The translations under genes were made by a program, and so were the position numbers. The notes beneath the pieces are model-generated. The model was not told the origin of the DNA, did not search any database, and was given only the letters and a program-made list of their open reading frames with translations. From Elusimicrobiota bacterium (GTDB lineage Bacteria; Elusimicrobiota; Elusimicrobia; Elusimicrobiales; UBA9959), in assembly GCA_018829985.1 (NCBI GenBank), contig JAHJSU010000333.1:1-56857 (forward strand): DNA of 56,857 nt, read 5' to 3'. Of this stretch, positions 17,644 to 56,826 are shown piece after piece (the first letter of the stretch is position 1; the number at the start of each line of letters is the position of its first letter).

Positions 17644-17716
17644 GGGTATAGGGGCTAGGGTAGAGGGTGCGGAAATAAGGAACTCCTTACCCTGAACCCT
17701 ATACCCTCTACCCTAG
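17644..17716. repeat. Word-hairpin (GGGTAnA words), rodA downstream
   Basis: Phased GGGTATA-GGGGCTA-GGGTAGA-GGGTGCG vs CCTTACCCTGAACCCTATACCCTCTACCCTAG. The same family occurs at 25934-25962, 26743-26800, 21785-21865 and 38340-38430. Confidence 0.8.
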
Positions 17717-17735
17717 AAGTAGTATCGTGATTTTT

Positions 17736-18512: not shown

Positions 18513-18657
18513 GGACTAAAGTAGGTGTTAAGGGTTTTAGGGGCTTAGGGTACAGAAATAATTAAAAAGGCCGTTCCCTTAAACCCTTAACTCCTTAACC
18601 CCTAATACTTAACTTTAATTCCTATAATTTACAAAGTGCAAGGAGAGTTTTAATATC

Positions 18658-23860: not shown

Positions 23861-24240
23861 TCTTGTTTTTGGGAGTTCTTTCGCTCTCCGCCGCCTGTTC
23901 CGCTTCCAGGCCGGACATTATCCAGGTAGGCCCGTGGTTCGCGCCCAAATCGCCGGATGAAGTCGCGCTTTTCTCTTCCAGGGGTGAGACCGCAAAACCC
24001 TGGGGCGCCATAGCGATAATACACAGTTCCAAATTCCCGCCGAACGATAAAAGCGCCATAGCGAACAGCAGGAAGCAGGCCAGGATCATGGCCGCCGAGA
24101 TCGGCGCGGACGGCCTTATTTTGATGGAGGAGACCGTTAAGGGCGAAACTCAATTGGGAGTTTACCAGGAACCGGAAGTGTATATAAGCGCTTTGGCTTT
24201 CAAATATGCCGCCGACATCTCCACCGCCCCACAAAAATAA
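23827..24240 (+). CDS. Putative lipoprotein (unknown function)
   Basis: Basic n-region, then lipobox LSLSAAC-S. Overlaps the hicA 3' end by 34 nt. It is not HicB-like. Confidence 0.55.
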   Translation: MQRAGLRASKIILFLGVLSLSAACSASRPDIIQVGPWFAPKSPDEVALFSSRGETAKPWGAIAIIHSSKFPPNDKSAIANSRKQARIMAAEIGADGLILMEETVKGETQLGVYQEPEVYISALAFKYAADISTAPQK

Positions 24241-24383
24241 CGTCAAGGCTAAAGGACAAAGGATAAAGGCTAAGGGACAGAAAAATCTTTTTGTATCTGC
24301 TGTGTTTTTTCCTTCAGTCTTCATCCCTCATCCTTCGTCCTTCCGAAAATTGCCATGGATATTTTTGTCCGTATGTTTTTGCT

Positions 24384-30356: not shown

Positions 30357-30395
30357 ATCCGGAGGAAGGGGTATAGGGGAAATCAAATATCAAAG

Positions 30396-30508
30396 GTAAC
30401 TACTCAGGTCTGTCGTCGTAGTGGCAGAGTTTACTCTGCCCAAAAAGGCAAAGCAAGCTTTGCCACTACAAAAAATACGTGAAAAATACGGAGAACCTGA
30501 GTAGTTAC
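30396..30508. mobile_element. MITE-A copy (113 bp) in the ftsH-cdaA spacer
   Basis: Same TIRs. 8-bp TSD TATCAAAG at 30388-30395 and 30509-30516. Internal sub-hairpins GGCAGAG..CTCTGCC and GGCAAAGC..GCTTTGCC. Confidence 0.9.
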
Positions 30509-30662
30509 TATCAAAGATTAAAAATCAAAAAGACAGTTTAAGAAGAGGAAAAAGCAAATGTCAAAGATTAAAAATCAATATGAATGACGCGGAAATTTAT
30601 GGTTTTTGGGTTTTTAGCGGGTATTTTTAAGATTTGATATTTAATTTTTTGATTTAACCAGT

Positions 30663-33303: not shown

Positions 33304-33453
33304 CCCGTCCGCCTTAGGCGGACGGGAGTTATGAGTTTTTCCGCCCCCGCCAAACAACCGGCGGGTCCGCCGAAGCTGTGTGGCGGAAAACGGCCGGCGG
33401 GCAAGCGGGTCCCCGCCAATACTACCCGGCGGGCGCAGCGCCTCTGGCGGAAA
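33304..33453. repeat. REP-like GC-rich unit cluster
   Basis: TCCGCCTTAGGCGGA, CCGCCAAACAACCGGCGGGTCCGCC and GTGGCGGAAAACGGCCGGCGGGCAAGCGGGTCC units. Single units also lie at 4575-4600, 12724-12765, 24408-24452 and 54075-54092. Confidence 0.85.
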
Positions 33454-41597: not shown

Positions 41598-41686
41598 CGG
41601 AAGGGGTGGGATTCGAACCCACGGTACGGCGATAACCGTACACCGGTTTTCAAGACCGGCGCCTTAAACCACTCGGCCACCCTTCC
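41598..41686 (-). tRNA. tRNA-Ser (anticodon UGA), CCA not encoded
   Basis: The reverse complement folds as a cloverleaf: acceptor GGAAGGG/CCCTTCC, anticodon loop CT-TGA-AA, long variable arm GTACGG..CCGTAC, and T-arm GTGGG-TTCGAAT-CCCAC. Confidence 0.93.
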
Positions 41687-41960: not shown

Positions 41961-42204
41961 CGGTTTTTCCGCCTAAGGCGGACCCGCTTGCCCGCCGGCC
42001 GTTTTCCGCCACACAGCTTCGGCGGACCCGCCGGTTGTTTTCCGCCACACTACTCGGCGGACCCGCCGGACTGTTTGGCGGGGGCGGGGGAGGGCCGGGC
42101 TGTTTGGCGGGCAAGACCGGCGCCTTTCCGCCGGAGGCGGATCCGCCATGTTGTTTTCCGCCACACTGCTCGGCGGACCCGCCGGACTGTTTGGCGGGGG
42201 CGGA
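41961..42204. repeat. Cluster of GC-rich REP-like palindromic units
   Basis: Iterated units of the form GTGGCGGAAAAC..CCGGCGGGTCCGCC and TCCGCC-TAA-GGCGGA. Its reverse complement is near-identical to 53371-53490 and to part of 33345-33450. Confidence 0.85.
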
Positions 42205-42225
42205 AAACCACTCGGCCACCCTTCC
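42205..42225. repeat. 21-bp exact duplicate of the tRNA-Ser 5' end
   Basis: AAACCACTCGGCCACCCTTCC is identical to 41666-41686. Confidence 0.9.
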
Positions 42226-42508: not shown

Positions 42509-44878
42509 ATGTCAAACGAAGCCGATACTTGCCGCAAATTTGTCCTTCCCAAGCTATACGCCGCCGGCTGGACCGACGACCACATAAGCGAGCAGAAATA
42601 TTTCACGGACGGCAGGGTTATAACCGTCGGCAACGCCTGTGTGACCAAAAAACAGAAACGCGCGGACTATCTTTTGCGCTATCGCCGCGACTTTCCCGTT
42701 GCCATTGTCGAAGCCAAGGCCGGCTATAAAACCGCCGGCGACGGGATGCAGCAGGCCAGGGAATACGCTGAAATTCTCGGGCTGATGTTTGCCTACGCCA
42801 CCAACGGCGCTGAAATACTGGAACACGACTACACTACCGGCGCAGAAACCCGGCTTGAGACCTTTCCGGCTCCGGAAGAACTCTGGCAAAGGTACAGAAA
42901 GGCCAAAGGCCTGTCCGCTGACAGTATGGCGGAAAAAGTCCTTGCGCCTTATTATTTCAATCCGGACAAGGAGCCGCGTTATTACCAGCGTATTGCCATA
43001 AACTCCGTTGTTCAGGCGATACTCAAAGGCCGGAGGCGCGTGCTTATTACCCTTGCCACCGGCACCGGCAAAACAGAAGTGGCTTTCCAGATCGCCTGGA
43101 AGCTTTGGACCTCCAAGTGGAATAAATCGGGGGAGGCGCGCAAACCCCGGATACTTTTCCTCTCTGACCGTAGCATATTGGTGGACGACCCCAAAGACAA
43201 GACATTCGCGCCTTTCGGCGAGGCCCGGCATAAAATTGACGGCGAGGCTGTTAAAAGCCGGGAAATGTACTTCGCCCTCTATCAATCACTGGCGCAGGAT
43301 GAACGCCGCCCCGGCCTTTACAAAGAATATGCCAAGGATTTTTTCGACCTCATAATTGTAGACGAATGTCACCGCGGCAGCGCCTCGGACGAGAGCAACT
43401 GGCGCGAAATCCTTGAATACTTTGAGCCCGCCTATCAATTGGGCATGACGGCCACCCCGCTGCGCGAGGACAACAAAGATACTTATAAGTATTTCGGCAA
43501 TCCCCTTTATACCTACAGTTTAAAGCAGGGTATAGAAGACGGCTTTCTTGCCCCGTATAAAGTTCACCGCATTGTGCCCGAGGTTGATGCCTCCGGCTGG
43601 CGGCCCGCCGTGGGCCAGGTTGACCGTTATAAACGCGAAATCCCGGATGGGGAATACGGTACCCCGGATTTCGGCAGGCTTCTGGCCTTGCGCCCCCGCA
43701 CTGAGGCCGTGGCCCGGCATCTTACGGATTTTCTAAAGCGCACAGACCGCTTCGGCAAAACCATAGTCTTTTGTGAAGACCAGGAAGAAGCCGAAGAAAT
43801 GCGCCTCCTCCTCAACAACCTGAATGCCGACCTTGTAAAGCAATATCCTGATTATGTTTGCCGCATTGTCTCGGATGAGGGAGCTTTGGGGCGCGGGCAC
43901 CTTGGCCGCTTTCAGGAGCTGGAAACCACCACCCCCGTTATTGTCACCACCAGCAAGCTGTTGACCACCGGCGTGGACGTGCAGATGTGCCGCAACATCG
44001 TCATATATAAAGTGGTTAATTCTATGACGGAATTTAAGCAGATAATAGGGCGCGGCACCCGCATTAAAAGGGATTATAAAAAGTTTTTCTTTAATATCCT
44101 GGATTATACCGGCAGCGCCGCCCGGCGTTTCGCCGACCCGGATTTTGACGGAGAGCCCGCCTTGCTTACGCTGGAGGAGATTGACGCAGCGGGGAAAGCA
44201 AAACCCGGCGCCGAAAAAATCTTAACTCCGGAACAAGAGGCCGACTATACTCAAACCCGCAATGAGTTTGAGCCTCCTGTTGAAGATTTGGGGCATGACG
44301 GCGCCCCCAGGAAGTATTATGTGGATGACGGCGACAAAATCCGCATAGTGGCGGATTATGAGCAAAGCCTGGATGAGTCCGGCAATAAGCTTAAGACCGT
44401 GCGTTATACGGATTACACCTCTGAAAAAGTCCGCTCCATGTTTACCTCTTCAGCCGAGCTCCTGTCAAAGTGGAAAGTTCCGGAGGAAAGGGAGGCCATA
44501 ATAACCGCCCTTGCCGAACGGGGAATAACTTTTGAGGATTTGGTTAAAGCCACCGGCCAGGATGACGCGGACCATTTTGATCTCTTGTGCCATGTGGCCT
44601 ACAACGCCCCTTTGCGCTCACGGCGCGAGCGGGCTGAGCGGGTAAGACTTGGTAAAAGCGACTTTTTTGAAAATTTTTCTCCGGATGCCAGGCAGATACT
44701 AAATGAAATTTTAGAGAAGTATGTTGAGTACGGTACCGAGCAGTTTAAAGTGCCGGATATCCTCAAGGTTGATCCTATTTCAAAACACGGCAATACCCTT
44801 GAAATTGCCGCCGTCTTTAATGGTCCGGAGAACCTCAAAGACGCATTAACCAAGCTGCAAACCTTCCTATATCCCTAA
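42509..44878 (+). CDS. hsdR: Type I restriction enzyme R subunit (short, COG4096-like form)
   Basis: N-terminal nuclease-like region (EADTCRKFVLPKL...VAIVEAK). SF2 motifs LATGTGKT, IVDECHRG and MTATP. Confidence 0.88.
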   Translation: MSNEADTCRKFVLPKLYAAGWTDDHISEQKYFTDGRVITVGNACVTKKQKRADYLLRYRRDFPVAIVEAKAGYKTAGDGMQQAREYAEILGLMFAYATNGAEILEHDYTTGAETRLETFPAPEELWQRYRKAKGLSADSMAEKVLAPYYFNPDKEPRYYQRIAINSVVQAILKGRRRVLITLATGTGKTEVAFQIAWKLWTSKWNKSGEARKPRILFLSDRSILVDDPKDKTFAPFGEARHKIDGEAVKSREMYFALYQSLAQDERRPGLYKEYAKDFFDLIIVDECHRGSASDESNWREILEYFEPAYQLGMTATPLREDNKDTYKYFGNPLYTYSLKQGIEDGFLAPYKVHRIVPEVDASGWRPAVGQVDRYKREIPDGEYGTPDFGRLLALRPRTEAVARHLTDFLKRTDRFGKTIVFCEDQEEAEEMRLLLNNLNADLVKQYPDYVCRIVSDEGALGRGHLGRFQELETTTPVIVTTSKLLTTGVDVQMCRNIVIYKVVNSMTEFKQIIGRGTRIKRDYKKFFFNILDYTGSAARRFADPDFDGEPALLTLEEIDAAGKAKPGAEKILTPEQEADYTQTRNEFEPPVEDLGHDGAPRKYYVDDGDKIRIVADYEQSLDESGNKLKTVRYTDYTSEKVRSMFTSSAELLSKWKVPEEREAIITALAERGITFEDLVKATGQDDADHFDLLCHVAYNAPLRSRRERAERVRLGKSDFFENFSPDARQILNEILEKYVEYGTEQFKVPDILKVDPISKHGNTLEIAAVFNGPENLKDALTKLQTFLYP

Positions 44879-44879
44879 A

Positions 44880-44904
44880 CAGCACAATTATTACAATTGT
44901 GCTG
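44880..44904. other. Perfect 10-bp stem hairpin between hsdR and the abiE promoter (terminator or operator)
   Basis: CAGCACAATT-ATTAC-AATTGTGCTG. No T-run follows it. It abuts the -35 box. Confidence 0.5.
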
Positions 44905-44909
44905 TGGGC

Positions 44910-44938
44910 TTGACAAATAGGCCGCCACAGCGTATAAT
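44910..44938 (+). promoter_or_regulatory. Consensus sigma-70 promoter for abiEi/abiEii
   Basis: TTGACA-N17-TATAAT, an exact consensus. It is followed by the inverted repeat TTACAtggagTGTAA (44941-44955) and ATG 44961. Confidence 0.65.
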
Positions 44939-44960
44939 AGTTACATGGAGTGTAACTATT

Positions 44961-45617
44961 ATGCGGGCAAACCCGGCTGAAAACGAACAAAAACTGTTCC
45001 TGATAGCCGATGGCCAGGGCGGCTATTTTACCGCTAAACAGGCCCGTTCGGCCGGCTACTACAACAGACTTCGGTATTATCATGCTGAAAAAGGCCATTG
45101 GCTTGCCGTAGACCGCGGGGTTTACCGGCTTAGAAACTACCCGGCCTCAGAAAGGGAAGACCTGATCCGCTGGTCGCTTTGGAGCTGCGACCGGAAAGGA
45201 AATCCCCAGGCTGTATTCTCTCATCATACCGCCCTTGCTTTTCATCAGCTTGGCGATATTATGCCCGCTAAAATTCATTTTACCGTCCCGCCTAAGTTCC
45301 GGAAAAAAATTTCAGGCGGCTGCGTTGTGCACCGCGCAGCCCTGCCGCCGGAAGATATTGAACGGCACGAAGGTTTTTTTGTGACAACCCCTTTCCGCAC
45401 GCTGTTTGACGCCCATATACACGGGTTTGAACCGGACCAGCTGCAAAAAGCCGTTGTTGACGCTTATAAAAAAGGGTTTATCCCGGATTTTAAGATAAAC
45501 AATCCAAAGACAGCCGAAGACCCGGGGGGTGTTGCCGGCGGCATGGGCGATTTTATGGCTTATGTTGCACAAATTATTTCCGGTTACAGGAACAGTCTTG
45601 CGCATGGAAGACCATAA
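44961..45617 (+). CDS. abiEi: AbiEi-family type IV TA antitoxin / transcriptional regulator
   Basis: N-terminal wHTH-like LIADGQGGYFTAKQARSAGY...LAVDRGVYRL. 14-nt overlap with the abiEii start. The start was chosen downstream of the consensus promoter. Confidence 0.7.
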   Translation: MRANPAENEQKLFLIADGQGGYFTAKQARSAGYYNRLRYYHAEKGHWLAVDRGVYRLRNYPASEREDLIRWSLWSCDRKGNPQAVFSHHTALAFHQLGDIMPAKIHFTVPPKFRKKISGGCVVHRAALPPEDIERHEGFFVTTPFRTLFDAHIHGFEPDQLQKAVVDAYKKGFIPDFKINNPKTAEDPGGVAGGMGDFMAYVAQIISGYRNSLAHGRP

Positions 45618-46600
45618 ACTTTATAAATCAGCTACGGCTTTCAGGAGAGCGCTTGAGGATCGTCTTAAAGCCATTGCCGGCGGCAGCATGGACCTGCCCC
45701 GGCTTAGAAAATCCGTGGCTTTTGAAAGACTGCTGGCCCGGTTTTTTGCCGATACCGGCTCAGCCTGGCTGCTGAAAGGCGGTTATGCCCTGGAAATCCG
45801 TTACAGGGGAAGCTCGCGTTCCACAAAAGATATGGATTTCACGCTGCCGAGCGCTTTAATGCTCCCCGGAACCAATAACGCGGACCCCGCCGCTATACAT
45901 GTTGTTATTGGGCGTATTGCGGCCAGGGAGCTTAATGACTGGTTTGAATTCCGCGTAGGCCCTGAAGCGCAGGAAATTGACGGCGCGCCATACGGCGGGT
46001 ACAGGTTCCCCATGGAAGCGGTTGTGGACAAGCGGCAGTTCTCAACTTTTCATTTTGATGTGGCCGTGGGCGACGCTGTAATGGGTGAGCCCGAGTGGCT
46101 TTTGGGCCACGATATGCTGTCCTTTGCCGGAATCCCGCCGGCAAAGATAGCCCTGCTTCCAAAAGAGCGGCATTTTGCGGAAAAAATTCATGCTTACACT
46201 TTCCCGCGCGGTAATGTCCCCAATTCAAGAACAAGGGACCTGGTGGACATGGTGATTCTAATACAAAAAGGGCTGTCAAAACAAAAAACATCGGAAGCAA
46301 TTAAGGCCACGTTTAGTAACTACTCAGGTTCTCCGTATTTTTCACGTATTTTTTGTAGTGGCAAAGCTTGCTTTGCCTTTTTGGGCAGAGTAAACTCTGC
46401 CACTACGACGACAGACCTGAGTAGTTACCACGTTTAACAGAAGGGGGACTCACGCTGTTCCTAAGGCGCTGGAGTATCCGCCGGATAACTGGAAACTGCC
46501 GTTTAAGAATCTTGCCGAAGAAATAGGGCTTGAGCCCAAAGCAATGGACGCTGCTTTTGCCGTTGTGACGGATTTCTGGAACGAACTTTTTAAGGAGTAA
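45604..46600 (+). pseudogene. abiEii: AbiEii-family nucleotidyltransferase toxin gene, interrupted by a MITE
   Basis: KGGYALEIRY...RSTKDMDF NTase motif. The ORF now ends at 46437 in MITE-derived sequence. Removing 121 bp restores a 291-aa ORF ending at 46600. Confidence 0.8.
46316..46428. mobile_element. MITE-A copy (113 bp) inserted in abiEii
   Basis: 13-bp TIRs GTAACTACTCAGG/CCTGAGTAGTTAC. 8-bp TSD CACGTTTA at 46308-46315 and 46429-46436. 113/113 identical (reverse orientation) to 30396-30508. Confidence 0.9.
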
Positions 46601-46602
46601 CT

Positions 46603-48171
46603 ATGGCACGCTCAAAAACACCCGCTCAGCCGCAGACCACCGCCGGGCAGCTCAGTTCTATTATAAAATCCTGCCGCGACATAATGCGCAAGGACAAAGG
46701 CCTTAACGGCGACTCCGACCGCCTGCCCATGCTCACCTGGATAATGTTCCTTAAATTCCTGGACGATATGGAAAAAATGCGCGAGAACGAAAGCAAAATG
46801 GACGGCAAAAGATATGCCTCTGCCATACAGCCGCCCTACAGATGGCGCGACTGGGCCGCAAAAGAGGAAGGTGTTACCGGCGAGGATTTGATTTCTTTCA
46901 TCAATAACGACGAATGCGTAAGGCCGGACGGCAGCCGGGGCGCCGGGCTTTTCGCCTATCTTAAAAGGCTTGAGGGCTCCAGGAAAGGCGACAGGCGCAC
47001 GGTTATTTCCACCGTGTTCCACGGCGCCATAAACCGCATGCAGAGCGGCTACCTTCTGCGGGATGTTATAAACAAAATAAACGGCATACATTTCACCTCC
47101 ACCGAGGAGATTTACACCCTTTCCCATCTTTACGAAAGCCTGCTTAAGGAAATGCGGGATTCCGCCGGCGACGCCGGGGAATTTTACACGCCGCGCGCCG
47201 TGGTAAAGTTTATGGTTACCGCCATAAATCCCAGACTGGGGGAGACAGTGCTGGACCCTTCCTGCGGCACCGGCGGTTTTCTGGTTGCGGTCTTTGAGCA
47301 TATCAGGAACCAGTGCAAAAACGTAGAAGATAATAAAATTCTCCAAAACGACACTCTTTACGGCGGCGAGGCGAAATCCCTGCCGTACCTGCTTTGCCAG
47401 ATGAATTTGCTCCTTCACGGTCTGGATTCGCCGTCAATTGACTCCGGCAATTCCCTGCGCTTTCCGCTTAACGAGATAGGCGACAAGGACCGCGTGGATG
47501 TTATAGTCACAAACCCGCCCTTCGGCGGCGAGGAGGAAAAAGGCATACAGGGCAATTTCCCGCAGGACAAGCAGACCGCTGAAACCGCGCTGTTGTTTTT
47601 GCAGCTTATTATGCGAAAACTCAGGCGCAAAGGCCCGGAGTCAAAGAAAGGCGGCCGCGCGGCGGTAATCGTGCCCAACGGCACGCTTTTCGGCGACGGC
47701 GTTTCGGCAAGAATAAAGGAAGAGCTGCTTAAAGAATTCAACCTGCACACAATTGTGCGCCTGCCCAACGGCGTGTTCGCGCCTTACGCCGGTATTCCCA
47801 CCAACATACTTTTCTTTGACCGCGGCGGCCCCACCAAAGAAATCTGGTACTATGAGCAGCCGCTCCCCGAAGGCCGCAAGAATTACACAAAAACCCAGCC
47901 CATCCAGTTTGACGAGTTTAAGCCCTGTCTTAACTGGTGGAAAAAGCGCGAGGAAAACGACCAGGCCTGGAGGGTAAAGGCTGAAGATATCCTGAAATAT
48001 GACGAGAACAAAGTCCTCGTTTCCGCCAACCTGGACATAAAAAATCCCAAGTCCCTGGAAGAGTTTGAACACCTAGCGCCGGAACAGCTTGTAGAGGATA
48101 TCCTGCAGAAAGAACATAAAGTAATAGAAATAATGGCCGAGCTAAAAGAGCTTTTAAAGAAGGTCATGTAA
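46603..48171 (+). CDS. hsdM: Type I R-M system DNA methyltransferase subunit M (N6-adenine)
   Basis: Motif I DPSCGTGGFL, motif IV NPPFGG, and an HsdM N-terminal domain. Confidence 0.92.
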   Translation: MARSKTPAQPQTTAGQLSSIIKSCRDIMRKDKGLNGDSDRLPMLTWIMFLKFLDDMEKMRENESKMDGKRYASAIQPPYRWRDWAAKEEGVTGEDLISFINNDECVRPDGSRGAGLFAYLKRLEGSRKGDRRTVISTVFHGAINRMQSGYLLRDVINKINGIHFTSTEEIYTLSHLYESLLKEMRDSAGDAGEFYTPRAVVKFMVTAINPRLGETVLDPSCGTGGFLVAVFEHIRNQCKNVEDNKILQNDTLYGGEAKSLPYLLCQMNLLLHGLDSPSIDSGNSLRFPLNEIGDKDRVDVIVTNPPFGGEEEKGIQGNFPQDKQTAETALLFLQLIMRKLRRKGPESKKGGRAAVIVPNGTLFGDGVSARIKEELLKEFNLHTIVRLPNGVFAPYAGIPTNILFFDRGGPTKEIWYYEQPLPEGRKNYTKTQPIQFDEFKPCLNWWKKREENDQAWRVKAEDILKYDENKVLVSANLDIKNPKSLEEFEHLAPEQLVEDILQKEHKVIEIMAELKELLKKVM

Positions 48172-49355
48172 TGAAAAAAAACTGGGCCTCAGCCCCCTTG
48201 GGGGAAATATTGATTGAGCGCCGGGAAGTCCCTGATGCCGAAGCTCTTGTTTCAGGAGAAATCCCTATTATCTCAAAAATTTCTTTTAAAGACGGAGAAA
48301 TAGTGCTACGTTCGGGTGGGGAAACAAGAACCGGGATGATTCTTGCGCGCAATGGCGACTTGCTTGTGTCGGGTATAAACGCAGCTAAAGGCGCAATTGC
48401 GATTTATGAAGGAGAAAAGCCAATAGCCGCAACCATCCATTATGGCGCGTATATCCCCAACGAAGGCAGGATAGATGTTAACTATCTCTGGTGGCTATTG
48501 CGTAGTCAGGCTTTTAAAGATTTGCTGGAAAAATATGTGCCTGGCGGAATTAAAACAGAACTTAAATCCAAACGTTTTCTCCCTATACCAGTTCCGCTTC
48601 CGCCCTTGCCTGAACAGCGAAAAATTGTTGCACGGATTGAGGATGTTAATGATAAAAATCAACGCATAAAAATGCTTAATACAGAGATTAAGAAGGAAAC
48701 CGAGTTAATTCTTTCTACTGTCCTGTCGGATATTTTTAGCAAGGCAGTAAAAAAGGGTTGGCAACAAGGTCGTTTGGGTAATTATGTTGTTAAAGACTGC
48801 TATGGGACATCAGAAAAGACTACCGATGATATTTCTGGTACACCAATTTTAAGAATGGGGAATATTCAAAAAGGAAAAATCCTTCTAAACGGATTAAAAT
48901 ATTTGTCCTTAACAGATAAAGAGAAAAATAAACTGTTGCTGCAAAAAGGAGATATATTGGTTAATCGAACAAATAGCGCTGAGCTTGTCGGAAAGTGTGC
49001 TGTTTTTGACTATGATGGTGATTTCGGATTTGCCTCTTACTTGATTATGCTTCGGGTAAATAAGGAGACTGCTGACCCATATTTGGTTTCCTATTATGTA
49101 AATTCATCTCTTGGCAGAAAATACATGCTTTCAGAAAAAAAACAAATGACTGGGCAAGCCAATGTCAACGCCACTAAACTAAAAGCTTTACCAATAGCAT
49201 TGCCGACACTAAAAGAACAGAAAAAGATTGCCGGCTTTTTAAAAAAGATTGACGGGATGGTTATGGACACCGAAAAACTGATTCATCGATCAGAGACTAA
49301 AATAGACGGCTTATTATCTTCGGTTTTAAATAAGGCGTTTAAGGGTGATTCGTAA
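48171..49355 (+). CDS. hsdS: Type I R-M system specificity subunit S
   Basis: Two TRDs separated by conserved helices (LPPLPEQRKIVARIE / LPTLKEQKKIAGFLKKID). AT-richer than its neighbours. Start overlaps the hsdM stop. Confidence 0.9.
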   Translation: MKKNWASAPLGEILIERREVPDAEALVSGEIPIISKISFKDGEIVLRSGGETRTGMILARNGDLLVSGINAAKGAIAIYEGEKPIAATIHYGAYIPNEGRIDVNYLWWLLRSQAFKDLLEKYVPGGIKTELKSKRFLPIPVPLPPLPEQRKIVARIEDVNDKNQRIKMLNTEIKKETELILSTVLSDIFSKAVKKGWQQGRLGNYVVKDCYGTSEKTTDDISGTPILRMGNIQKGKILLNGLKYLSLTDKEKNKLLLQKGDILVNRTNSAELVGKCAVFDYDGDFGFASYLIMLRVNKETADPYLVSYYVNSSLGRKYMLSEKKQMTGQANVNATKLKALPIALPTLKEQKKIAGFLKKIDGMVMDTEKLIHRSETKIDGLLSSVLNKAFKGDS

Positions 49356-49369
49356 TTCAGGAGACAGCC

Positions 49370-50809
49370 ATGAACACGCGGAAATTGCTGGATAAGTTCC
49401 GGGGCTGGGCGCATTACGACCCTGTTATGAAGCAGGAGATGCTTGACGCGGCGGGGGAGTTTTTCGCTTTTTACGAGGAGCCGGAAGCGATTGAGAGGGA
49501 TGTGACTTTAAAAGGTCTTTTTCACGAATGGTTCCTTTTTGACAGGAAGACCACGCGGTATCTTAAAACACCGGCCGAAATCTTTCTGCGTTACGGCGGC
49601 CGCGCTGTCGCAAAAAAAGAAAAAGAATTTTTCAAAGCCCTTACCGAAACCGTTTTCGGCGTGTTTGAGGTTTTGTCTTCAGACGCCCAAGCCGGGCTTA
49701 TCCATATTAAAAGGGTGGACGGCGCCGGGGAATGGACTGTAAAAGACATACGCGGCAGCCAAAGTATGCAGGCAGGGAACGTGCTTTTTGCCAGGGTGAT
49801 CCCCCTGGCGGAAGAACCGATTTTCACCGGCTGGGTATCCGGCTATCCCGCCGGCGGCGGAGAGCTGAAGGATATCTTTAAAAAATTTTCAGACTCGTCT
49901 AAAAACTTATCCGGCTTAAAGCCGCGGTATCTGCTGAAGCTCTGGAGCAGACCCATTAACTGGCTGGAGAAGGGGGAATTCTTCTGCAAGACCCGCCTGG
50001 CCGGCATCTGGCAGAGATGGTGCGGCAAAGACAGGCCTTTCTCAGAATTGGAAGCCGCCGTGGACACGGGCGACCACGACAAATACCTGCTGGCCCAAAA
50101 AACCCTTCTCGAGAGCGTACCGGATCATGACGAGCTTCACGATTTAATGGACCTGCTGGAAGCCTACTGGAATCTGTCTTCCGGCAAGAAAGCGGGTTTA
50201 AAAACGCCGGTTGAGCGGGTAGGCCCGGCGGGCCCCGGACCCGTGGAAAGGAAGTATCTGAATATGCTCGGCGACGCCAATTTTAAGCGCTATCAAAAAA
50301 ACGGCGGAGAACTGTCAAAAGAGGAAAACGATTCCTGGCTGAAAAATCCGGCCAACGGGGAAAACGGCCTTAGCCCGTTTGAGCTGATTTCCAAAGAAAG
50401 AAAAAGCAATAATCACCCTTTTCCGGAGCAGATAAGCTATTCCATAAAAATACAGGGGCTTGAGAATAAGGCGGCGGGGCCCGCCTCGGAAAAGACGCAG
50501 GCCGCGCTGGGCTTTATGATGCACAAAAATTTTAAAAAAGCCGCGCAGCTCTATGAAGAAGCCCTTACAGTGTTAAAGCATGACAAATCAGTCTCGTTCA
50601 AGATTTTCGGCAATTTGGGCATTTGCTACGCGCTTATGGGTGAAAGGGAAAAGGCCGCCGAAGCGCTGCGCGAAGCCCTGCGCCACAACCCGGATTATGA
50701 CCGCGCCAGGGAGCATTTAAGCGACATTGAATCCATGACCGATAAGCAATACAAGAAATTCCTCAAGGAGGGTCCGGACCATCTCACCCACAGCGAATGG
50801 CGGGGATAA
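49370..50809 (+). CDS. Hypothetical protein with C-terminal TPR repeats
   Basis: 479 aa. The N-terminal module (LFHEWFLFDR...VFGVFEVL...GLIHIKRV) is vaguely like the N-termini of SEC-C-motif/YecA-like proteins (from memory, weak). C-terminal TPR (AAQLYEEAL...ALRHNPDYDRA). Confidence 0.55.
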   Translation: MNTRKLLDKFRGWAHYDPVMKQEMLDAAGEFFAFYEEPEAIERDVTLKGLFHEWFLFDRKTTRYLKTPAEIFLRYGGRAVAKKEKEFFKALTETVFGVFEVLSSDAQAGLIHIKRVDGAGEWTVKDIRGSQSMQAGNVLFARVIPLAEEPIFTGWVSGYPAGGGELKDIFKKFSDSSKNLSGLKPRYLLKLWSRPINWLEKGEFFCKTRLAGIWQRWCGKDRPFSELEAAVDTGDHDKYLLAQKTLLESVPDHDELHDLMDLLEAYWNLSSGKKAGLKTPVERVGPAGPGPVERKYLNMLGDANFKRYQKNGGELSKEENDSWLKNPANGENGLSPFELISKERKSNNHPFPEQISYSIKIQGLENKAAGPASEKTQAALGFMMHKNFKKAAQLYEEALTVLKHDKSVSFKIFGNLGICYALMGEREKAAEALREALRHNPDYDRAREHLSDIESMTDKQYKKFLKEGPDHLTHSEWRG

Positions 50810-50818
50810 AAGAATATA

Positions 50819-52909
50819 ATGCCGGAAGAAAAAAACAAGCCCTATCAGGGCATAAAGACCGGAGAGCCCTCCCCGGCGGCATTTTTCTTTGCGCCGGACG
50901 GGCCCCTTTCCGGGGCGCTGAAAAATTTTGAGCCCAGAAAGCAGCAGGAAGCGATGGCCGGCGCCGTTTACAGCGCTGTCGGCGAAAAAAAGCATCTGAT
51001 AGTGGAGGCAGGCACGGGGGTGGGAAAGTCGCTTGCCTATCTTCTGCCGGCGGCCTTATGGGCGGTCCGTAATAAAAAGAAGGCGGTGGTCGCCACCTAT
51101 ACCAAGGCTCTTCAGGAGCAGCTCACCAAAAAAGATCTGCCTGTCGTCAAGGCCATGCTGCAAAATGCCGGGCTTGAGCTAAAGTATTTTCTCTTGATGG
51201 GCTCCTCCAATTATCTGTGCCTGGCCAGGCTGTGCAGATGCGCCGAACGGGGCGCCGGGCTTTTTGACGATGAAGAAGCGCGGAAAACAGCGGAGGACCT
51301 GCTTGAATGGTCCAAAACCTGCGTTTCCGGCTGCCGGACCGAAGTGCCGTTCAGGGTTTGCGCGCGCGTTTGGGAAGAGGCTTGCCGCGACCCGGATATC
51401 TGCCTTGGCAGGCGCTGCTCCTTTAAAGAGGACTGCCTGTACCGCAAAGACGTGGCCAAGGCAAAGCAGGCCGACCTTATTGTGGTAAACCAGCATCTTT
51501 ATTTCGCCGGTATTCCCATCCCCGCTTTTGACGCGGTTATCTTCGACGAGGCGCATAACCTTGAGGACGTGGCGTCCAATTTTTTCGGTTTCTCGCTTAC
51601 GGACCGGCAAATAAAGCGCCTGCTGGATGATGTCTTCAACGCCAGGTCCGGCAAAGGCCTGGCAAAAAGGCTCCGGCGCCCGCCCGCTAAATGGCTGGAT
51701 GAGGTTAAGGACGCGGTGCGCGACGCGCATTTTGCCTCAAAGCTGTTTTTTCAGGATATAGCCGAAAAAACCGGGCTTGTCCGCCGTAGCCTTAGCGAAG
51801 GCGGGCTCAACGGCGCCGGCGGCGGATTTCAGGCCAAAGCCAGGCGGGTGCGCGAGCCCGGCATAGTTGAAAATCCCCTTTCCGGGCCGCTGACGGAGCT
51901 TGGCGGGCTTCTCTCCGGCGCCGTCGGGCACAGCCAGACGGATTTGGAGGAGCTGGAAATTAAAGCGCACCACAACAGGTGTCAGCAAATTACCGGCCAG
52001 CTTAATTCCTTCCTTAAATGCGAAAGCAAAGAGCACGCGTATTGGGTTGAGGTTAAGTCCGCCAGGCGCAATCCGGTTATTTCATTGAATAAAGCCCCGG
52101 TGGAGGTGGCGGACAGTCTGCGAAAAGAGCTTTTTGAAGCGCATTGCCCCGTAATTTTAACTTCGGCCACGCTGGCGGCTGGCGGCTCGTTTAAGATGCT
52201 TCGGTCCAGGCTGGGCGTGGACAACGCTTCCGAACTTCTTCTGGACTCGCCTTTCGAGTATGAAAAACAGGCCGTAATTTATATGCCGGCGGATATCCCG
52301 GACCCTAAAGACGCCGCTGAATATGAGCGCGCCGTTATCGGAAGCTGCCCTGAAATAGCCGCGGCGGTGGAAGGCGGCATTTTTATCCTCTACACCAACT
52401 GGCAGTTGCTTGAAAAATCTTTCAGGAACCTGGCGGGCGCAATAACGGGCAGGCCTCTGTTCCGGCAGGGGGAAAAACCGCCGCAGCAGTTATTGGCGGA
52501 TTTTAAAAAAGCCGGCAACGGGATTCTGCTGGCCACGGACACCTTCTGGCAGGGGATAGACGTGCCGGGCTCCGCGTTGTCCTGCGTGGTAATAACCAGG
52601 CTGCCGTTCCTTTCCCCGGATACCCCGCTTGAAGAGGCCCGCCAGGAATGGATGGCCGCAAAAGGCATTGACGTTTTCAGCGAATATTCGCTGCCGAAGG
52701 CGATAGTTAAATTCAGGCAGGGCTTCGGCCGGCTGATAAGAAGCGGCAGCGATTTCGGCGCGGTCATTGTGCTGGATCCCAGAATAAAAACCAGGCGTTA
52801 CGGCGCCATGTTCCTGCGGTCAGTGCCCAAATGCCGGCGGCTGGAAAGTTTGAAGGAAATCAAAGAATTCTTCTCATCCCGGAAACCCGGCGCGCAATTG
52901 TCTAAATGA
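50819..52909 (+). CDS. DinG/XPD-family (Rad3-like) ATP-dependent DNA helicase with Fe-S cluster cysteines
   Basis: Walker A EAGTGVGKS, DEAH box FDEAHN, a Cys-rich segment (C...CRDPDICLGRRCSFKEDC), and C-terminal helicase_C_2 motifs (FWQGIDVPG, QGFGRLIR). Confidence 0.85.
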   Translation: MPEEKNKPYQGIKTGEPSPAAFFFAPDGPLSGALKNFEPRKQQEAMAGAVYSAVGEKKHLIVEAGTGVGKSLAYLLPAALWAVRNKKKAVVATYTKALQEQLTKKDLPVVKAMLQNAGLELKYFLLMGSSNYLCLARLCRCAERGAGLFDDEEARKTAEDLLEWSKTCVSGCRTEVPFRVCARVWEEACRDPDICLGRRCSFKEDCLYRKDVAKAKQADLIVVNQHLYFAGIPIPAFDAVIFDEAHNLEDVASNFFGFSLTDRQIKRLLDDVFNARSGKGLAKRLRRPPAKWLDEVKDAVRDAHFASKLFFQDIAEKTGLVRRSLSEGGLNGAGGGFQAKARRVREPGIVENPLSGPLTELGGLLSGAVGHSQTDLEELEIKAHHNRCQQITGQLNSFLKCESKEHAYWVEVKSARRNPVISLNKAPVEVADSLRKELFEAHCPVILTSATLAAGGSFKMLRSRLGVDNASELLLDSPFEYEKQAVIYMPADIPDPKDAAEYERAVIGSCPEIAAAVEGGIFILYTNWQLLEKSFRNLAGAITGRPLFRQGEKPPQQLLADFKKAGNGILLATDTFWQGIDVPGSALSCVVITRLPFLSPDTPLEEARQEWMAAKGIDVFSEYSLPKAIVKFRQGFGRLIRSGSDFGAVIVLDPRIKTRRYGAMFLRSVPKCRRLESLKEIKEFFSSRKPGAQLSK

Positions 52910-53859
52910 AAATACTTTTTGTCACCGACCTGCACGGAAACGAGGCCAAATTCCGCCGTGGTTTTGATATTGCCAGGGAGACCGGCGCAAAAGCCGTTAT
53001 AAACGGCGGCGATATGCTCTGCCACGGGGCGGACATTCACAAAGAGCAGCGGGAGTTTATAGAAGGCTTTCTTGACGGGCACTTCGCCGAATATGAACAA
53101 AGCGGCATTTACCATCTTGGCTATCTCGGAAACGACGATTTGCGGATATATGACCCGCTGTTTGATTCGGTTTGCTCGAAATACAAATACGCAGTGAATC
53201 TGGCGCAGTCCCGGTTCGAGCTCTATGGTTTTGAATTTATAGGCATGAACTGGGTTACGGATTACCCGTTCAGGCTGAAGGACAGGTGCCGCCGCGACGG
53301 CCCCGGCTATGTTTTCCAGGAACAGTTCGGCTCCGGGCTGCTGTCCACTCCCGAAGGCTTCAAAGAGCTGCCCGCCCCCGCCAAACAACCGGCGGGTCCG
53401 CCGAGTAGTGTGGCGGAAAACAACCGGCGGGTCCGCCGAAGCTGTGTGGCGGAAAACGGCCGGCGGGCAAGCGGGTCCGCCTCTGGCGGAGAGGACTGGC
53501 CGGCTTATGCCGCCACGCTGCCTACCATTGAGAATGAACTTGCCGCCCTTCCCAAGCCGAAGACAGTCGCTAAAACGGTTTATGTAATCCACATGCCGCC
53601 TTCCGGGCTTGGCCTGGATGTAACCGACTCCGGGGAGGAGGTAGGCTCAAAAGCCGTCAGCCGGTTCATCAAGAAAACAGGCCCGCTATTGACCTTGCAC
53701 GGCCACATCCACGAATCGCCGTCAATGAGCGGCGTATGGAAAGCCAAAATCGGGAAAACGGTGTGTATTCAGCCCGGCCAGATGAAAGGAAAAGCCTTAA
53801 GTTATGTTCTGATAAACCTGAAAAGCATGGAACTGGAAAGATTTGAAGAGCCGCTGTAG
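52906..53859 (+). CDS. Calcineurin-like metallophosphoesterase carrying an in-frame REP-array insertion
   Basis: ILFVTDLHGN, GGDM, GNDD, HMPP and LHGHIHES motifs. 4-nt overlap with the helicase gene. Confidence 0.8.
   Translation: MKILFVTDLHGNEAKFRRGFDIARETGAKAVINGGDMLCHGADIHKEQREFIEGFLDGHFAEYEQSGIYHLGYLGNDDLRIYDPLFDSVCSKYKYAVNLAQSRFELYGFEFIGMNWVTDYPFRLKDRCRRDGPGYVFQEQFGSGLLSTPEGFKELPAPAKQPAGPPSSVAENNRRVRRSCVAENGRRASGSASGGEDWPAYAATLPTIENELAALPKPKTVAKTVYVIHMPPSGLGLDVTDSGEEVGSKAVSRFIKKTGPLLTLHGHIHESPSMSGVWKAKIGKTVCIQPGQMKGKALSYVLINLKSMELERFEEPL
53371..53490. repeat. REP-like unit array (~120 bp) inside the metallophosphoesterase CDS
   Basis: Near-identical to the reverse complement of ~41965-42090 and to 33345-33420. 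Translated in-frame as PAPAKQPAGPPSSVAENNRRVRRSCVAENGRRASGSASGG. Confidence 0.85.
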
Positions 53860-54370
53860 ATCCCCGGTTACGCCCCCGGAAACTTTATAGAGACCTTTTG
53901 AAGTCGTTTTCCCCGGAATCCCCCGCTCCGCCTGATTGCCTGAATTGTGTATTTTGCGTTCCGCAAAACACACCGCGGCAAAGTCCACCGCTTCCAGCAG
54001 AAACGGCGTTGTTTATCATGGCCTCACCCCTTCCCGTCCGCCACCAAGCTTGGGGGGGCCGGGTTTCGTCCGTCTAAGGCGGACGTACAAGGCTATGTCA
54101 GTGCCGTATCAGGGTCCTTCGATTACACTCAGGACAGTGAGGCTTCGACGGTGAGCTCAGCCGAACCGCGCAGTCGAACTGCCTATGGCCTTCAGACGGC
54201 CATAGCTAAAAGTGCATATTTACCCCTTTCAGAAGGCGGAAATCTAATGGCAATTCGCCATATAAAAAAATATAATTGATTACCGGGGGTTGTAAAAATT
54301 GCGACTCAGTTTTGTTTTGATTTTTCACATTAACAATATGCCTTAACGCAGACCACCCGCAAAAACATGT

Positions 54371-56710
54371 ATGCATGACGAACTTGAGCAAGCACGACTT
54401 AAAATAGAACAGCTTCAGCGGGAAAATACTGAACTTCGCAAGCGATTGGGGGCGACTGTCGCTGAGCAGGCGCCGGTTTATACCACAACGGCTCCGGAAC
54501 TTCCTTTATTGGCGGAAACTTTGCCGACCGTCGCAAACAATGCTTCTATTGAAGAAAAAATAAAGCTTTTTCGTTCCTTGTTCAGAGGCCGGGAAGATGT
54601 ATATGCCGCCTATTGGCAGAACGACCGGACGGGCAAGAAAGGGTACTCCCCCGCATGTGAAGACCCGTGGAGCCTCCAAAAAGGCCAGCCTCGCAAATAT
54701 TTGCCGCTGACGGATCAGGTCATCAATGATCATCTGTCCGGCAATAAGATAGTCGGCGTATTTCCTCTGCTTAAAGACAATACCTGCTGGTTTCTGGCCT
54801 GCGATTTTGACAAAGACGGCTGGAAACTGGACGCCGTGGCATATCTGGAGGTCTGTAAGCGGTACGGGGTTCCCGCCTGTCTGGAACGTTCCCGTTCAGG
54901 CAACGGCGGCCATGTCTGGATATTTTTCTCTTCGCCGGTGTCGGCTGTTTATGCCCGGCAGCTTGGGATGCGCGTTTTAAGGGAAACCATGGATCTTCGC
55001 GGCGATCTGGACCTGGGGAGCTATGACCGATTCTTCCCGAATCAGGATTTCGTTCCCAAAGGCGGATTTGGCAACCTCATAGCCATGCCTCTCCAGAAAA
55101 AATGCCGCGCCATCGGTAATACGGAATTTCTGGACGGTTCCTCTACAGAATTACGCGCCTATCCTGACCAGTGGGCTTTTTTAAGCAGCGTCCAGAGACT
55201 CACACCGCAACAACTGAATGCTAGCCTTGAAGTTATACCGTTTGTCACTATTGGCCCCGGCAAAATCGAGTCCACACCTGAAGCCATAAGAGCCGGATAT
55301 CCGGCCCCTAAACAAATCCGCTGTGAGTTCTTCTCATCTTTCAGCCTGGAAAAATCGGGTATTCCGCCCTGGATGCTTTCCAAGTTAAAACATCTTGCAT
55401 CCCTGCATAATCCGGAGTTTTACAAAATGCAAAAACTCCGAAGATCCACCCACATGCTCACCCGATTTATCAAATGTTATAGGGAAGATTTTAGTCACTT
55501 TCACTTACCGCGTGGAACACGGGAAGATGTTAATGAAATAGCCCGGCAAGCCGGAAGCGAGCTTATATGTATTGATCGGCGTAAAGTGCCGGAGCCGCTC
55601 TCATTGCAATTCCATGGTTCTTTAAGCCCGGAACAGGAAAAGGCGGTTCAAACCGTCCTTCGCGAGGACATGGGCCTTCTTGTCGCGCCGCCCGGCGCCG
55701 GTAAGACGGTAATGGGCTGCTTTGCCATAGCCAAGCGCAACCTGCCGACACTGATTCTGGCCCACCGCAAACCTATCCTGGAACAGTGGCGAAAACAGCT
55801 CACAACGCTTTTAGACCTCGAGCCTTCTCAAATCGGCCGGATCGGAGGCGGCAAAAAGGAGCAAAACGGGATTATTGATCTGGCTATGCTCCAGACTTTA
55901 GCGCGTCTTGAAGATTTAAGCGCGCTTTTCTCAAAATACGGTTTCATCATAGTGGATGAGTGCCACCATCTGCCTGCGGCGACTTTTGAGGCCTGTATAA
56001 GAGAAGCCCCGACCAGGTATATTCTGGGCCTCACGGCCACGCCTTACCGCCGGGACGGATTGCAGGATATACTTATCATGCAGTGCGGCCCGGTTCGCCA
56101 TAAAATGTCGGAACAAATGAGCAATCTCCCGCTGCAATTGAATGTCCGCGAAACCGAATTTGTATGCCCGACAGAGGAGGATACGCCGATTCAGGAAATT
56201 TTCCGCGGCATTGTTCATGACGATACGCGGAGTACGTTAATCGAGCAGGATATATCAGCTGCCCTGAAACAAGGGAGACGCTGCCTGGTTTTAAGCCAAT
56301 GGAACGAGCACTGCCGGGCTTTGGCTGACAAGCTGGCCCGAAAGGGAACGACTCCTTTTGTTTTAAGCGGAACCCAGGGCAAGAAAGAACGCGCCGCCAT
56401 CTTAAAATCAATCCAGGACACGCCTCCGGACAAGGATTTAATAGTCGTCGCAACCGGACAGTATCTGGGCGAGGGTTTTGACTGTCCGCAGCTTGATACT
56501 CTTTTCCTTGCTTTTCCTGTATCTTTCAAAGGCAAACTTATACAGTATGTCGGACGCATCATGCGGGAGCATCCGTCAAAAAAGCGCGTGCTTGTTTATG
56601 ATTACCGGGATTCACAGGTGCCCGTCTTGAACAAAATGCACGCAAGGCGCCTTAAAACGTACAAGGCTTTGGGATTTAATCGTGATAACCGGAAGGAGAT
56701 GTTTTTATGA
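54371..56710 (+). CDS. Primase-polymerase (AEP)-like N-terminal domain fused to an SF2 DEAD/DEAH-box helicase
   Basis: Coiled-coil start. FRGREDVYAAYW...GYSPAC...LACDFDKDGW...ERSRSGNGGHVWIFF...FPNQDFVPKGGFGNLIAMPLQ. Helicase motifs APPGAGKT, VDECHH and LTATPYRRDG. Confidence 0.8.
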   Translation: MHDELEQARLKIEQLQRENTELRKRLGATVAEQAPVYTTTAPELPLLAETLPTVANNASIEEKIKLFRSLFRGREDVYAAYWQNDRTGKKGYSPACEDPWSLQKGQPRKYLPLTDQVINDHLSGNKIVGVFPLLKDNTCWFLACDFDKDGWKLDAVAYLEVCKRYGVPACLERSRSGNGGHVWIFFSSPVSAVYARQLGMRVLRETMDLRGDLDLGSYDRFFPNQDFVPKGGFGNLIAMPLQKKCRAIGNTEFLDGSSTELRAYPDQWAFLSSVQRLTPQQLNASLEVIPFVTIGPGKIESTPEAIRAGYPAPKQIRCEFFSSFSLEKSGIPPWMLSKLKHLASLHNPEFYKMQKLRRSTHMLTRFIKCYREDFSHFHLPRGTREDVNEIARQAGSELICIDRRKVPEPLSLQFHGSLSPEQEKAVQTVLREDMGLLVAPPGAGKTVMGCFAIAKRNLPTLILAHRKPILEQWRKQLTTLLDLEPSQIGRIGGGKKEQNGIIDLAMLQTLARLEDLSALFSKYGFIIVDECHHLPAATFEACIREAPTRYILGLTATPYRRDGLQDILIMQCGPVRHKMSEQMSNLPLQLNVRETEFVCPTEEDTPIQEIFRGIVHDDTRSTLIEQDISAALKQGRRCLVLSQWNEHCRALADKLARKGTTPFVLSGTQGKKERAAILKSIQDTPPDKDLIVVATGQYLGEGFDCPQLDTLFLAFPVSFKGKLIQYVGRIMREHPSKKRVLVYDYRDSQVPVLNKMHARRLKTYKALGFNRDNRKEMFL

Positions 56711-56718
56711 CCCGAATT

Positions 56719-56826
56719 GTTACTACTCAGCCACAAAGTCACAAAGACACGAAAGAAATCAGACAACAAACCGTTTGATCCATAAACTTTCTTTGTGCCT
56801 TGGTGTCTTAGTGGCTGAGTAATTAC
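56719..56826. mobile_element. MITE-B copy (~108 bp) just after the AEP-helicase stop
   Basis: ~99% identical to 22865-22971 over ~98 bp. Confidence 0.75.

Follow-up and report, generated by a model that had tools for sequence, protein, structure and literature searches.

CAPP, the CRISPR-associated primase-polymerase (Prim-Pol), is a DNA-dependent enzyme capable of strand displacement, and its Marinitoga representative (MpCAPP) was rendered inactive by the D177A/D179A mutation, which turns the DxD motif into AxA (CAPP paper of 2021, PMC8211822). The same work divided the CAPP_A group into TPR, RT and helicase types, with the helicase type being the most prevalent architecture outside CRISPR. 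In DRT7, abortive-infection defence against phages depends on the DxD motif of a CAPP-like Prim-Pol domain. A TOTE system, by the definition used here (PMC12458937), consists of a TPR-OB(CSD) protein together with a TBP protein and an effector. The gene analysed in this study, located at the very end of a 56,857-nt contig of an Elusimicrobiota bacterium (JAHJSU010000333.1, assembly GCA_018829985.1; the window, hereafter, is this entire contig), encodes a 779-residue protein in which a CAPP-like archaeo-eukaryotic primase (AEP) domain is fused to an XPB-like superfamily 2 (SF2) helicase. Our results indicate that this gene is an ordinary representative of a family that is very large, already named and horizontally mobile, and that its product may well be a self-contained enzyme directed against invading DNA.

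54371-56710, plus strand: AEP-helicase gene, encoding a coiled coil, an AEP primase-polymerase domain, a beta/alpha middle domain and an XPB-like SF2 helicase

In the open reading frame (ORF) list, the gene appears as a complete, ATG-initiated ORF of 779 aa, and because full-length homologs of 775-826 aa with 60-85% identity align to it beginning with the first residues, we regard it as a true gene. The gene caller used for the source assembly reports a product of only 573 aa from an internal Met start, which loses the catalytic half of the AEP domain. An initial annotation of this DNA, made from the letters and their ORFs, had proposed the 779-aa ORF and quoted a series of motifs from it, all of which are present at the residues indicated: GYSPACEDPWSLQKGQPRKYLPLTD at 91-115, FLACDFDKDGW at 141-151, ERSRSGNGGHVWIFF at 172-186, FPNQDFVPKGGFGNLIAMPLQ at 222-242, APPGAGKT at 439-446, VDECHH at 528-533 and LTATPYRRDG at 554-563. 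The features of the N-terminal half are the following.

54371-54451, plus strand: N-terminal coiled-coil helix, residues 1-27, from the predicted model and heptad conservation
54554-55219, plus strand: AEP (primase-polymerase) domain, residues 62-283, from PF22548, the PADLOC PrimPol profile, PDB and Foldseek
54641-54715, plus strand: GYSPAC...YLPLTD segment, residues 91-115, without a four-Cys insert
54791-54823, plus strand: AEP motif I, FLACDFDKDGW, with metal-binding D145 and D147, aligned with the DID of MpCAPP
54884-54928, plus strand: AEP motif II, ERSRSGNGGHVWIFF, with H181, aligned with TGNRGYHIWIFF of MpCAPP
55019-55096, plus strand: AEP motif III region, SYDRFFPNQDFVPKGGFGNLIAMPLQ, aligned with VEIFPKQ...GGLGNLIKVPL of MpCAPP

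The match to the Pfam AEP-TOTE model (PF22548; residues 62-283, E=4.3e-86, 288.7 bits against a cutoff of 27) covers positions 1-228 of the 230 in the profile, and the PADLOC 'CRISPR-associated PrimPol' profile is matched with E=1.3e-87. A sequence match (E=6e-14) connects the AEP half with the Prim-Pol domain of Marinitoga CAPP, whose structure has been solved (PDB 7nqd/7nqf/7p9j), and when residues 55-310 were modelled separately (pLDDT 70) the top Foldseek hit was again CAPP (7nqe, E=8.6e-11, TM 0.61/0.70), followed by other AEPs only, namely LigD-Pol, Prim-PolC, the PrimPols of phages S-2L and NrS-1, RepB' and pRN1 ORF904. The AEP/PrimPol nature that the initial annotation had attributed to the N-terminal region is therefore borne out by the profile, by the sequence match to the solved CAPP and by the fold, the profile and fold searches being among the checks it had itself proposed. 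In an alignment of 32 homologs, motifs I and II are invariant, H181 falls on the motif II histidine of MpCAPP, and S217, Y218, D219, R220, P223, Q225 and D226 are also invariant, with D219 or D226 being the candidate for the third acidic residue of motif III. The catalytic motifs of the AEP (DxD, sGxGxH and a third acidic motif) are all intact. The comparison with MpCAPP (a CAPP_A; PDB 7NQD, 7NQE, 7NQF, 7P9J) thus reveals a homologous catalytic domain in which the DxD and the His are aligned, in an otherwise different protein: MpCAPP has an N-terminal TPR region and a C-terminal PriCT-like domain, lacks a helicase and is encoded beside cas1-cas2, whereas the window protein combines a coiled coil with an SF2 helicase and lies in no CRISPR context. 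As for the coiled coil, also noted initially, the predicted model has a single helix at residues 2-25, and E11, L15, E18, N19, L22, R23 and L26 are nearly invariant in the same 32 homologs; it probably serves dimerisation.

A peculiarity that had been pointed out for this protein was the lack of the Cys cluster that typical members carry after GYSPAC. At the family level this difference is real, as the consensus of distant members reads PACxNEWxxGxCxKxxxKCxxC, and 76 of the 134 AEP-domain cluster representatives with a readable segment carry four to five Cys after GY.PAC in a regex count, so that about half of the PF22548 family has the insert. It does not, however, set the window protein apart from its own clade: no close homolog has extra Cys after GYSPAC, and the relatives at least 47% identical to it all have zero or one Cys there. 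Absence of the cluster is therefore a clade-wide trait rather than a distinctive feature of this protein.

The C-terminal half contains the following features.

55283-55600, plus strand: small beta/alpha domain, residues ~305-410, before the helicase core
55619-56680, plus strand: SF2 helicase core, residues 417-770, from ResIII/DEAD/Helicase_C and XPB matches
55685-55708, plus strand: Walker A, APPGAGKT
55952-55969, plus strand: DECH
56030-56059, plus strand: LTATPYRRDG
56543-56566, plus strand: QYVGRIMR

Pfam places ResIII at residues 417-560 and Helicase_C at 631-732, and in the 32-homolog alignment the Walker A GAGKT, DECH, TAT and QxxGRxxR are invariant, with helicase motifs I, II, III and VI all intact. 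When the full-length predicted model (pLDDT 79.5) was submitted to Foldseek, XPB/Rad25 proteins dominated the output, with the S. tokodaii XPB-Bax1 complex (6p4o) matching at E=1e-20 over ~480 columns, and sequence searches returned XPBII (6p4f, E=1e-22 by phmmer), A. fulgidus Rad25 (2fwr) and 7clg (E=4e-18 over residues 357-746). The completeness of the core, which had been described as a DEAD/DEAH helicase, was thus confirmed, but its type needs correction, as this is a DExH (DECH) helicase of the XPB/Rad25-like kind rather than a DEAD-box one. In comparison with XPB/Rad25 (6P4O/6P4F, 2FWR, TFIIH XPB), the C-terminal ~470 residues superpose on the whole archaeal protein, while the position of the XPB RED motif is occupied by YRRDG (RRD, not RED), and the XPB equivalog model NF045503 scores 75.8 bits, far below its cutoff of 610. 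Unlike XPB-Bax1, moreover, the window protein is fused to an AEP, and no Bax1-like nuclease neighbour was seen. High-confidence beta/alpha elements precede the core at residues 315-402, and because the alignments span about the whole archaeal XPB, residues ~305-410 of the model probably correspond to the XPB N-terminal damage-recognition domain, an equivalence we infer from Foldseek output that carries no residue ranges. Stand-alone helicases of 450-480 aa in IMG/VR viral contigs (L095-L109 among our loci) and in phages match residues ~311-770 with 32-36% identity and begin with this same small domain. For this reason, we consider the beta/alpha domain and the helicase to be one evolutionary unit, with relatives in phages that lack the AEP.

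Two further groups of enzymes share the SF2 or the AEP component. The SF2 translocase core is related to that of helicase-nuclease restriction enzymes (PADLOC mREase_IV, E=1e-17; PDB 7CLG, which we take to be SauUSI; Type I HsdR), and longer members of the AEP-helicase family carry PLD or PD-(D/E)xK nucleases as these enzymes do; the window protein, in contrast, has neither a nuclease nor a modification-reading domain, and it has an AEP. Similarly, pRN1 ORF904 and AgaPP with its DUF3987 helicase combine an AEP fold (a weak structural match) with helicase activity, as is the case here, but these are element replicases with SF3/D5-type helicases and PriCT, whereas the helicase of the window protein is XPB-like, and no PriCT, D5_N or SF3 match was found in it with Pfam and NCBIfam, which sets it outside the replicative primase-helicases. 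Finally, DRT7 is also a single large protein in which a CAPP-like Prim-Pol is joined to another enzyme acting on nucleic acids, although there the partner domain is not a helicase but a reverse transcriptase, followed by a long C-terminal region, and the likeness we compared is limited to the shared CAPP-like fold.

With regard to the size of the family, searching with the AEP domain among clusters at 50% identity returned 8215, 3638 and 1071 representatives at E<=1e-3, 1e-10 and 1e-30, respectively. Homologs with 60-85% identity to the window protein occur in Elusimicrobia, Rhodocyclales, Deltaproteobacteria, Alphaproteobacteria and Binatia, and RefSeq and NCBI call such homologs 'TOTE conflict system archaeo-eukaryotic primase domain-containing protein', which confirms the label given in the initial annotation. 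As an example, the counterpart in E. coli O157:H7 (WP_000233452.1) has the same AEP plus XPB-like SF2 architecture in ~780 aa, with 42% identity over residues 59-769, and both genes are solitary in the variable cargo of islands. The O157:H7 allele was matched in 1730 of 5426 complete E. coli genomes, 684 times over at least 80% of the allele length, while other matches include annotated pseudogene remnants, so that roughly one complete E. coli genome in three holds a copy or a remnant. Plasmids contributed 96 near-full-length copies, and 74 of 114 plasmid matches were on conjugative or mobilizable plasmids. The fused AEP-helicase, on the other hand, was absent from 50,697 phage genomes, and a scan of IMG/VR with two search patterns, one of them placed within the AEP domain, did not find it either; a phage origin of the fusion was rejected, in that viral contigs and phage genomes hold only the stand-alone helicases that start at residue ~311. 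Long members of the family (~870-1013 aa) add C-terminal nucleases that the window protein does not have, DUF559/MTES_1575 (PD-(D/E)xK) in six of 24 and PLDc_2 in six of 24, and in two of the long members an Lsr2 DNA-binding domain forms the C-terminal end. Decay is frequent in the family, many of the copies being pseudogenes or remnants. In one Elusimicrobia metagenome-assembled genome (locus L012, 10001-16099) the AEP-helicase homolog is split, with its N-terminal third several kb away, and the homologs of loci L013 and L014 are interrupted or truncated. Since relatives with 85% identity and a label for the family are already public, the window gene by itself adds little to this picture.

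The genomic neighbourhoods were studied in ~95 homolog loci, using a crude longest-ORF gene calling on contigs many of which are short, and comparing the resulting 917 neighbour ORFs all-against-all by BLASTP. No neighbour family was present in more than seven of the 95 loci, and a conserved operon partner was therefore rejected for the clade. This result does not agree with the suggestion that partner genes would lie beyond the window end, and neither does the lack of any CSD or TBP match in the island that precedes the gene. A Pfam census of the 138 immediate neighbours listed AbiEii (5), HATPase_c_4 (5), AlbA_2 (3), AAA_14 (3), RhuM (2), Fic (2), HEPN (2) and recombinase (2), plus HTH families, and no TPR, CSD or TBP was among the 25 most-matched families of these neighbours. 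AbiEi, Fic/SoFic, AAA_14-DUF4143 and AlbA_2-HATPase_c_4 genes are also found immediately beside the gene, and in the neighbouring genes PADLOC identified AbiE and SoFic, along with several candidate systems. In E. coli of the O157 type the gene follows an integrase-AlpA-DUF3987-YfjI-Gp2/YfjJ series, beside ycdU. When the same ycdU-adjacent integrase-AlpA-YfjI-YfjJ island was compared between strains OHT76-1 (L138, 9001-15912) and 116 (L137, 12001-14361), this slot was seen to hold either the intact gene or a 5' remnant followed by two genes, one for an AAA-domain protein of 1652 aa and the other for a product of 478 aa, which looks like cargo replacement at a hotspot. In Pantoea plasmid pDSJ06, the gene lies between a resolvase-type recombinase gene and a DUF4158 gene, and we read this copy as the cargo of a Tn3-type transposon. 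At locus L004 it adjoins an integrase and TraG/TrbI. No tRNA or tmRNA attachment site was found by the smpB-adjacent homolog of locus L006. At three loci (L008, 7009-9930; L014, 6899-9940; L019, 6484-8259), an SNF2-SWIM zinc finger helicase or a SWIM-DUF6880 protein is encoded directly upstream.

The only partner that recurs in the closest relatives (84-85% identity; L001-L003 and L007, the latter being Elusimicrobia GWA2_56_46) is a gene of 459-471 aa whose start overlaps the stop of the AEP-helicase gene (ATGA), and which in L001 and L007 encodes a SLFN_AlbA_2 plus HATPase_c_4 protein starting with MTKI(S/P)EFLRQ. What is left of this arrangement in the window is listed here together with the repeat that follows.

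56693-56719, plus strand: apparent remnant of the partner-gene start, with AAGGAG at 56693-56698 and an ATG at 56707-56709 that overlaps the TGA stop
56720-56826: MITE-like (miniature inverted-repeat transposable element) repeat of 107 nt, with terminal inverted repeats of ~30 nt

The remnant seems to amount to ~4 codons (MTRI, compared to MTKI in the relatives), after which the repeat begins, as the initial annotation had recognised in placing a MITE-B copy right after the gene. A copy 98% identical to this repeat lies at 22865-22971. In the source groundwater metagenomes, word depth rises from ~40 across the gene to 10,000-20,000 in the repeat (~260-500x) and the repeat has many different left flanks, two findings that together indicate its presence in hundreds of copies. 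The unique 40x contig stops inside the repeat, all Logan contigs break there, and the window itself ends 147 nt past the AEP-helicase stop codon; the breaking of the assembly by a high-copy repeat explains this end. Mapping the source metagenome on the two-gene locus of a relative yielded no contig of matching depth over the AlbA_2 gene at 80% identity or above, while the same mapping recovered the AEP gene at ~85% identity as a positive control, although this negative is a weak one, given that contigs show presence and not absence. In all, the AlbA_2 partner has probably been truncated or lost in the window.

Based on these results, we judge the chances to be about even that the protein is a self-contained anti-invader (conflict) enzyme, carried as cargo by defence islands, integrative elements, transposons and plasmids. 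The reasons for this reading are the solitary, mobile and decaying copies, the defence and cargo slots in which they are found, the nuclease modules of some members, and the absence of the fusion from phages; DRT7, moreover, provides a precedent that a CAPP-like Prim-Pol domain can be needed for abortive-infection defence. Were this the case, the XPB-like module would bind invading DNA, translocate along it with ATP and melt the duplex, and the exposed single strand would pass to the fused AEP, which would prime de novo and extend with strand displacement as its relative CAPP does. Such unscheduled synthesis might then block replication or packaging of the invader, or be toxic to the infected cell. 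This killing or blocking step is conjecture, since the window protein carries no nuclease or other obvious toxic effector, and this is one of several points that speak against a defensive role. Phage replication proteins are among its relatives (PHROG primase, E=9e-14; PHROG DNA helicase, E=5.5e-59), and the many copies on conjugative plasmids or integrative and conjugative elements (ICEs) would also suit a role in the service of the element. Our literature search returned no experimental study of any member of the AEP-TOTE/XPB fusion family, and PADLOC v2 includes no validated system with an AEP-helicase protein, only the 'CRISPR-associated PrimPol' profile. We also acknowledge that the enrichment of defence genes among the neighbours is a rough estimate made without a computed background, and that the crude ORF calling on many short contigs affects it as well. 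A narrower proposal, which we regard as quite unlikely, is that the nuclease-less, Cys-less AEP-XPB clade acts as an autonomous single-protein effector that would stop invading DNA through unscheduled priming and strand displacement coupled to the helicase, a form of 'replication sabotage'.

The alternative that survives best, and that we nonetheless consider rather unlikely, is a factor serving the element that carries it, which would prime and unwind element DNA, for instance while the complementary strand is made following conjugation or when an excised island replicates, or would act in break repair or damage tolerance. An AEP with a helicase is, in fact, a classic replication module of mobile elements, and AgaPP, with a helicase encoded by a neighbouring gene, supports priming, translesion synthesis, microhomology-mediated end joining and survival of DNA damage. 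The distribution is also compatible with this role, given the prevalence of conjugative or mobilizable plasmids among the plasmid matches, the integrase and TraG/TrbI genes at L004, the YfjI/DUF3987 and Gp2-type initiator genes adjoining the E. coli copy, and the finding that non-CRISPR CAPP homologs typically reside in mobile elements (PMC8211822), to which the matches of both modules to phage primase and helicase families can be added. However, the helicase is SF2 XPB-like and not of the SF3, DnaB or D5 kinds found in element replicases, and the loci studied share no conserved neighbour of the integrase, relaxase or origin-like kind. Some of the carriers already appear to be provided for, as Pantoea pDSJ06 has its own RepA and the E. 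coli island its YfjI and Gp2-type genes. Nuclease fusions, swapping of the slot and the frequent decay into pseudogenes are more in keeping with a defence gene than with an essential function of the element, and the fusion is absent from phage genomes.

The view taken in the initial annotation was that of a multi-gene TOTE effector whose partners would be encoded past the contig end or in another part of the genome. This view is best weighed against the genes that precede the AEP-helicase gene in the window.

41598-41686, minus strand: tRNA-Ser(tga), start of the island, from ARAGORN and Rfam
42509-53859, plus strand: defence island, from Pfam, PADLOC and NCBIfam
42509-44878, plus strand: hsdR
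44904-45617, plus strand: abiEi
45529-46437, plus strand: abiEii
46603-48171, plus strand: hsdM
48171-49355, plus strand: hsdS
49370-50809, plus strand: TPR protein
50819-52909, plus strand: DinG/YoaA-like helicase
52906-53859, plus strand: metallophosphoesterase

The gene is indeed the terminal one of this tRNA-Ser-adjacent island with a Type I restriction-modification system and AbiEi/AbiEii, in agreement with its earlier placement at the island edge. In favour of a TOTE system, the Pfam and RefSeq names link the domain to TOTE, a TPR protein is encoded three genes upstream, and any downstream genes are out of sight, with the contig ending so close to the stop. Of the three TOTE components, however, the effector, in the form of the AEP-TOTE domain, is the one that was found, and neither a TPR-OB nor a TBP neighbour was. 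The search for CSD, OB and TBP gave no match in the stretch running from 42.5 kb to where the contig stops, of which the ORFs of at least 150 aa and one 110-aa ORF were scanned. The TPR protein (479 aa), which has no CSD match, carries its TPRs in the C-terminal part only, with no family match in the first 380 residues, and the DinG/YoaA-like gene, the phosphoesterase gene and a 511-nt gap separate it from the AEP-helicase gene. In addition, no TPR, CSD or TBP partner recurs in the homolog loci, and where annotated surroundings are available, in E. coli and on plasmids, the gene stands alone. Membership of the clade in a canonical TPR-OB-TBP TOTE system is thus not supported, the name being that of the domain model, and a multi-gene effector of this type appears improbable to us.

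A role as an accessory polymerase in CRISPR adaptation, that is to say as a true CAPP, is highly improbable, because although CAPP is the best solved relative, the PADLOC PrimPol profile is matched so well, and the neighbouring DinG-like gene matches the PADLOC 'type IV DinG' profile (E=3e-124), there is no cas gene (cas1, cas2 and csf included) from 42.5 kb to the contig end and no array-like repeat or Rfam CRISPR repeat family, the NCBIfam PrimPol_Msp equivalog of type A1 CAPP scores 84.3 bits against a cutoff of 200, the DinG-like gene is best described as YoaA/DinG (NCBIfam YoaA, 547 bits against a cutoff of 680; Csf4, just 93 against 400), and helicase-type homologs are mostly outside CRISPR loci (PMC8211822). 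A CRISPR link was accordingly rejected.

Upstream of the gene, the non-coding region previously given as 510 bp measures 511 nt (53860-54370), its largest ORF being of 110 aa and without a family match. This region does not align with those of the two closest relatives and has no Rfam match, and a conserved leader or RNA element was rejected on these grounds. One weak promoter match was recorded by a consensus scan, in a region where the number of such matches was not above that of shuffled sequence.

54247-54276, plus strand: sigma-70-like promoter match, ATGGCA-18-TATAAT, ~95 nt before the ATG

No Shine-Dalgarno sequence precedes the ATG of the AEP-helicase gene, as had been remarked, and this is unremarkable considering that, among 38 ORF starts examined along the contig, 14 likewise lack one. 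The GC content is unremarkable as well.

Some observations concern the island and the rest of the contig. The AbiEi/AbiEii toxin-antitoxin pair sits between hsdR and hsdM of the Type I system (42509-49355), and the tightly packed trio that follows hsdS (49370-53859; TPR protein, DinG/YoaA-like helicase and metallophosphoesterase) may be a separate candidate system. A GC-rich repeat family of ~60-100 nt (AAACAACCGGCGGGTCCGCC...) is present at 33337-33412, 41968-42087, 42150-42207 and 53382-53490; two copies flank the region just past the tRNA-Ser gene, and one lies inside the metallophosphoesterase ORF (52906-53859) with the frame kept. A perfect 116-nt inverted repeat pair is found at 30395-30510 and 46314-46429, where the second arm makes up the last ~120 nt of the AbiEii ORF (45529-46437). 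Further families of short intergenic repeats, AGTCTAAAGT... and GGCTAAAGGATAAAGG..., are scattered on the contig in both orientations (1219-1363 and 22709-22797; 6039-6177, 11131-11304, 12888-13026 and 24234-24363).

The 'TOTE' name, in light of our results, should be taken as a marker of the domain family and not as proof of membership in a TPR-OB-TBP system, as the clade of the window protein is solitary. The same chassis is found with alternative nucleases or coupled to an AlbA_2 ATPase gene, and this suggests an anti-DNA enzyme of modular design. A family this large, spread across phyla, located in the cargo slots of defence islands and mobile elements and present, as a copy or a remnant, in about one of every three complete E. 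coli genomes is worth experimental work. If its role in defence were true, this would be the second case, after DRT7, of a CAPP-like polymerase that is itself an immune effector, and 'replication sabotage', if it occurs, would be distinct from the nuclease, NADase, membrane and reverse-transcriptase defences, in that it would involve neither the cutting of DNA nor the depletion of a metabolite.

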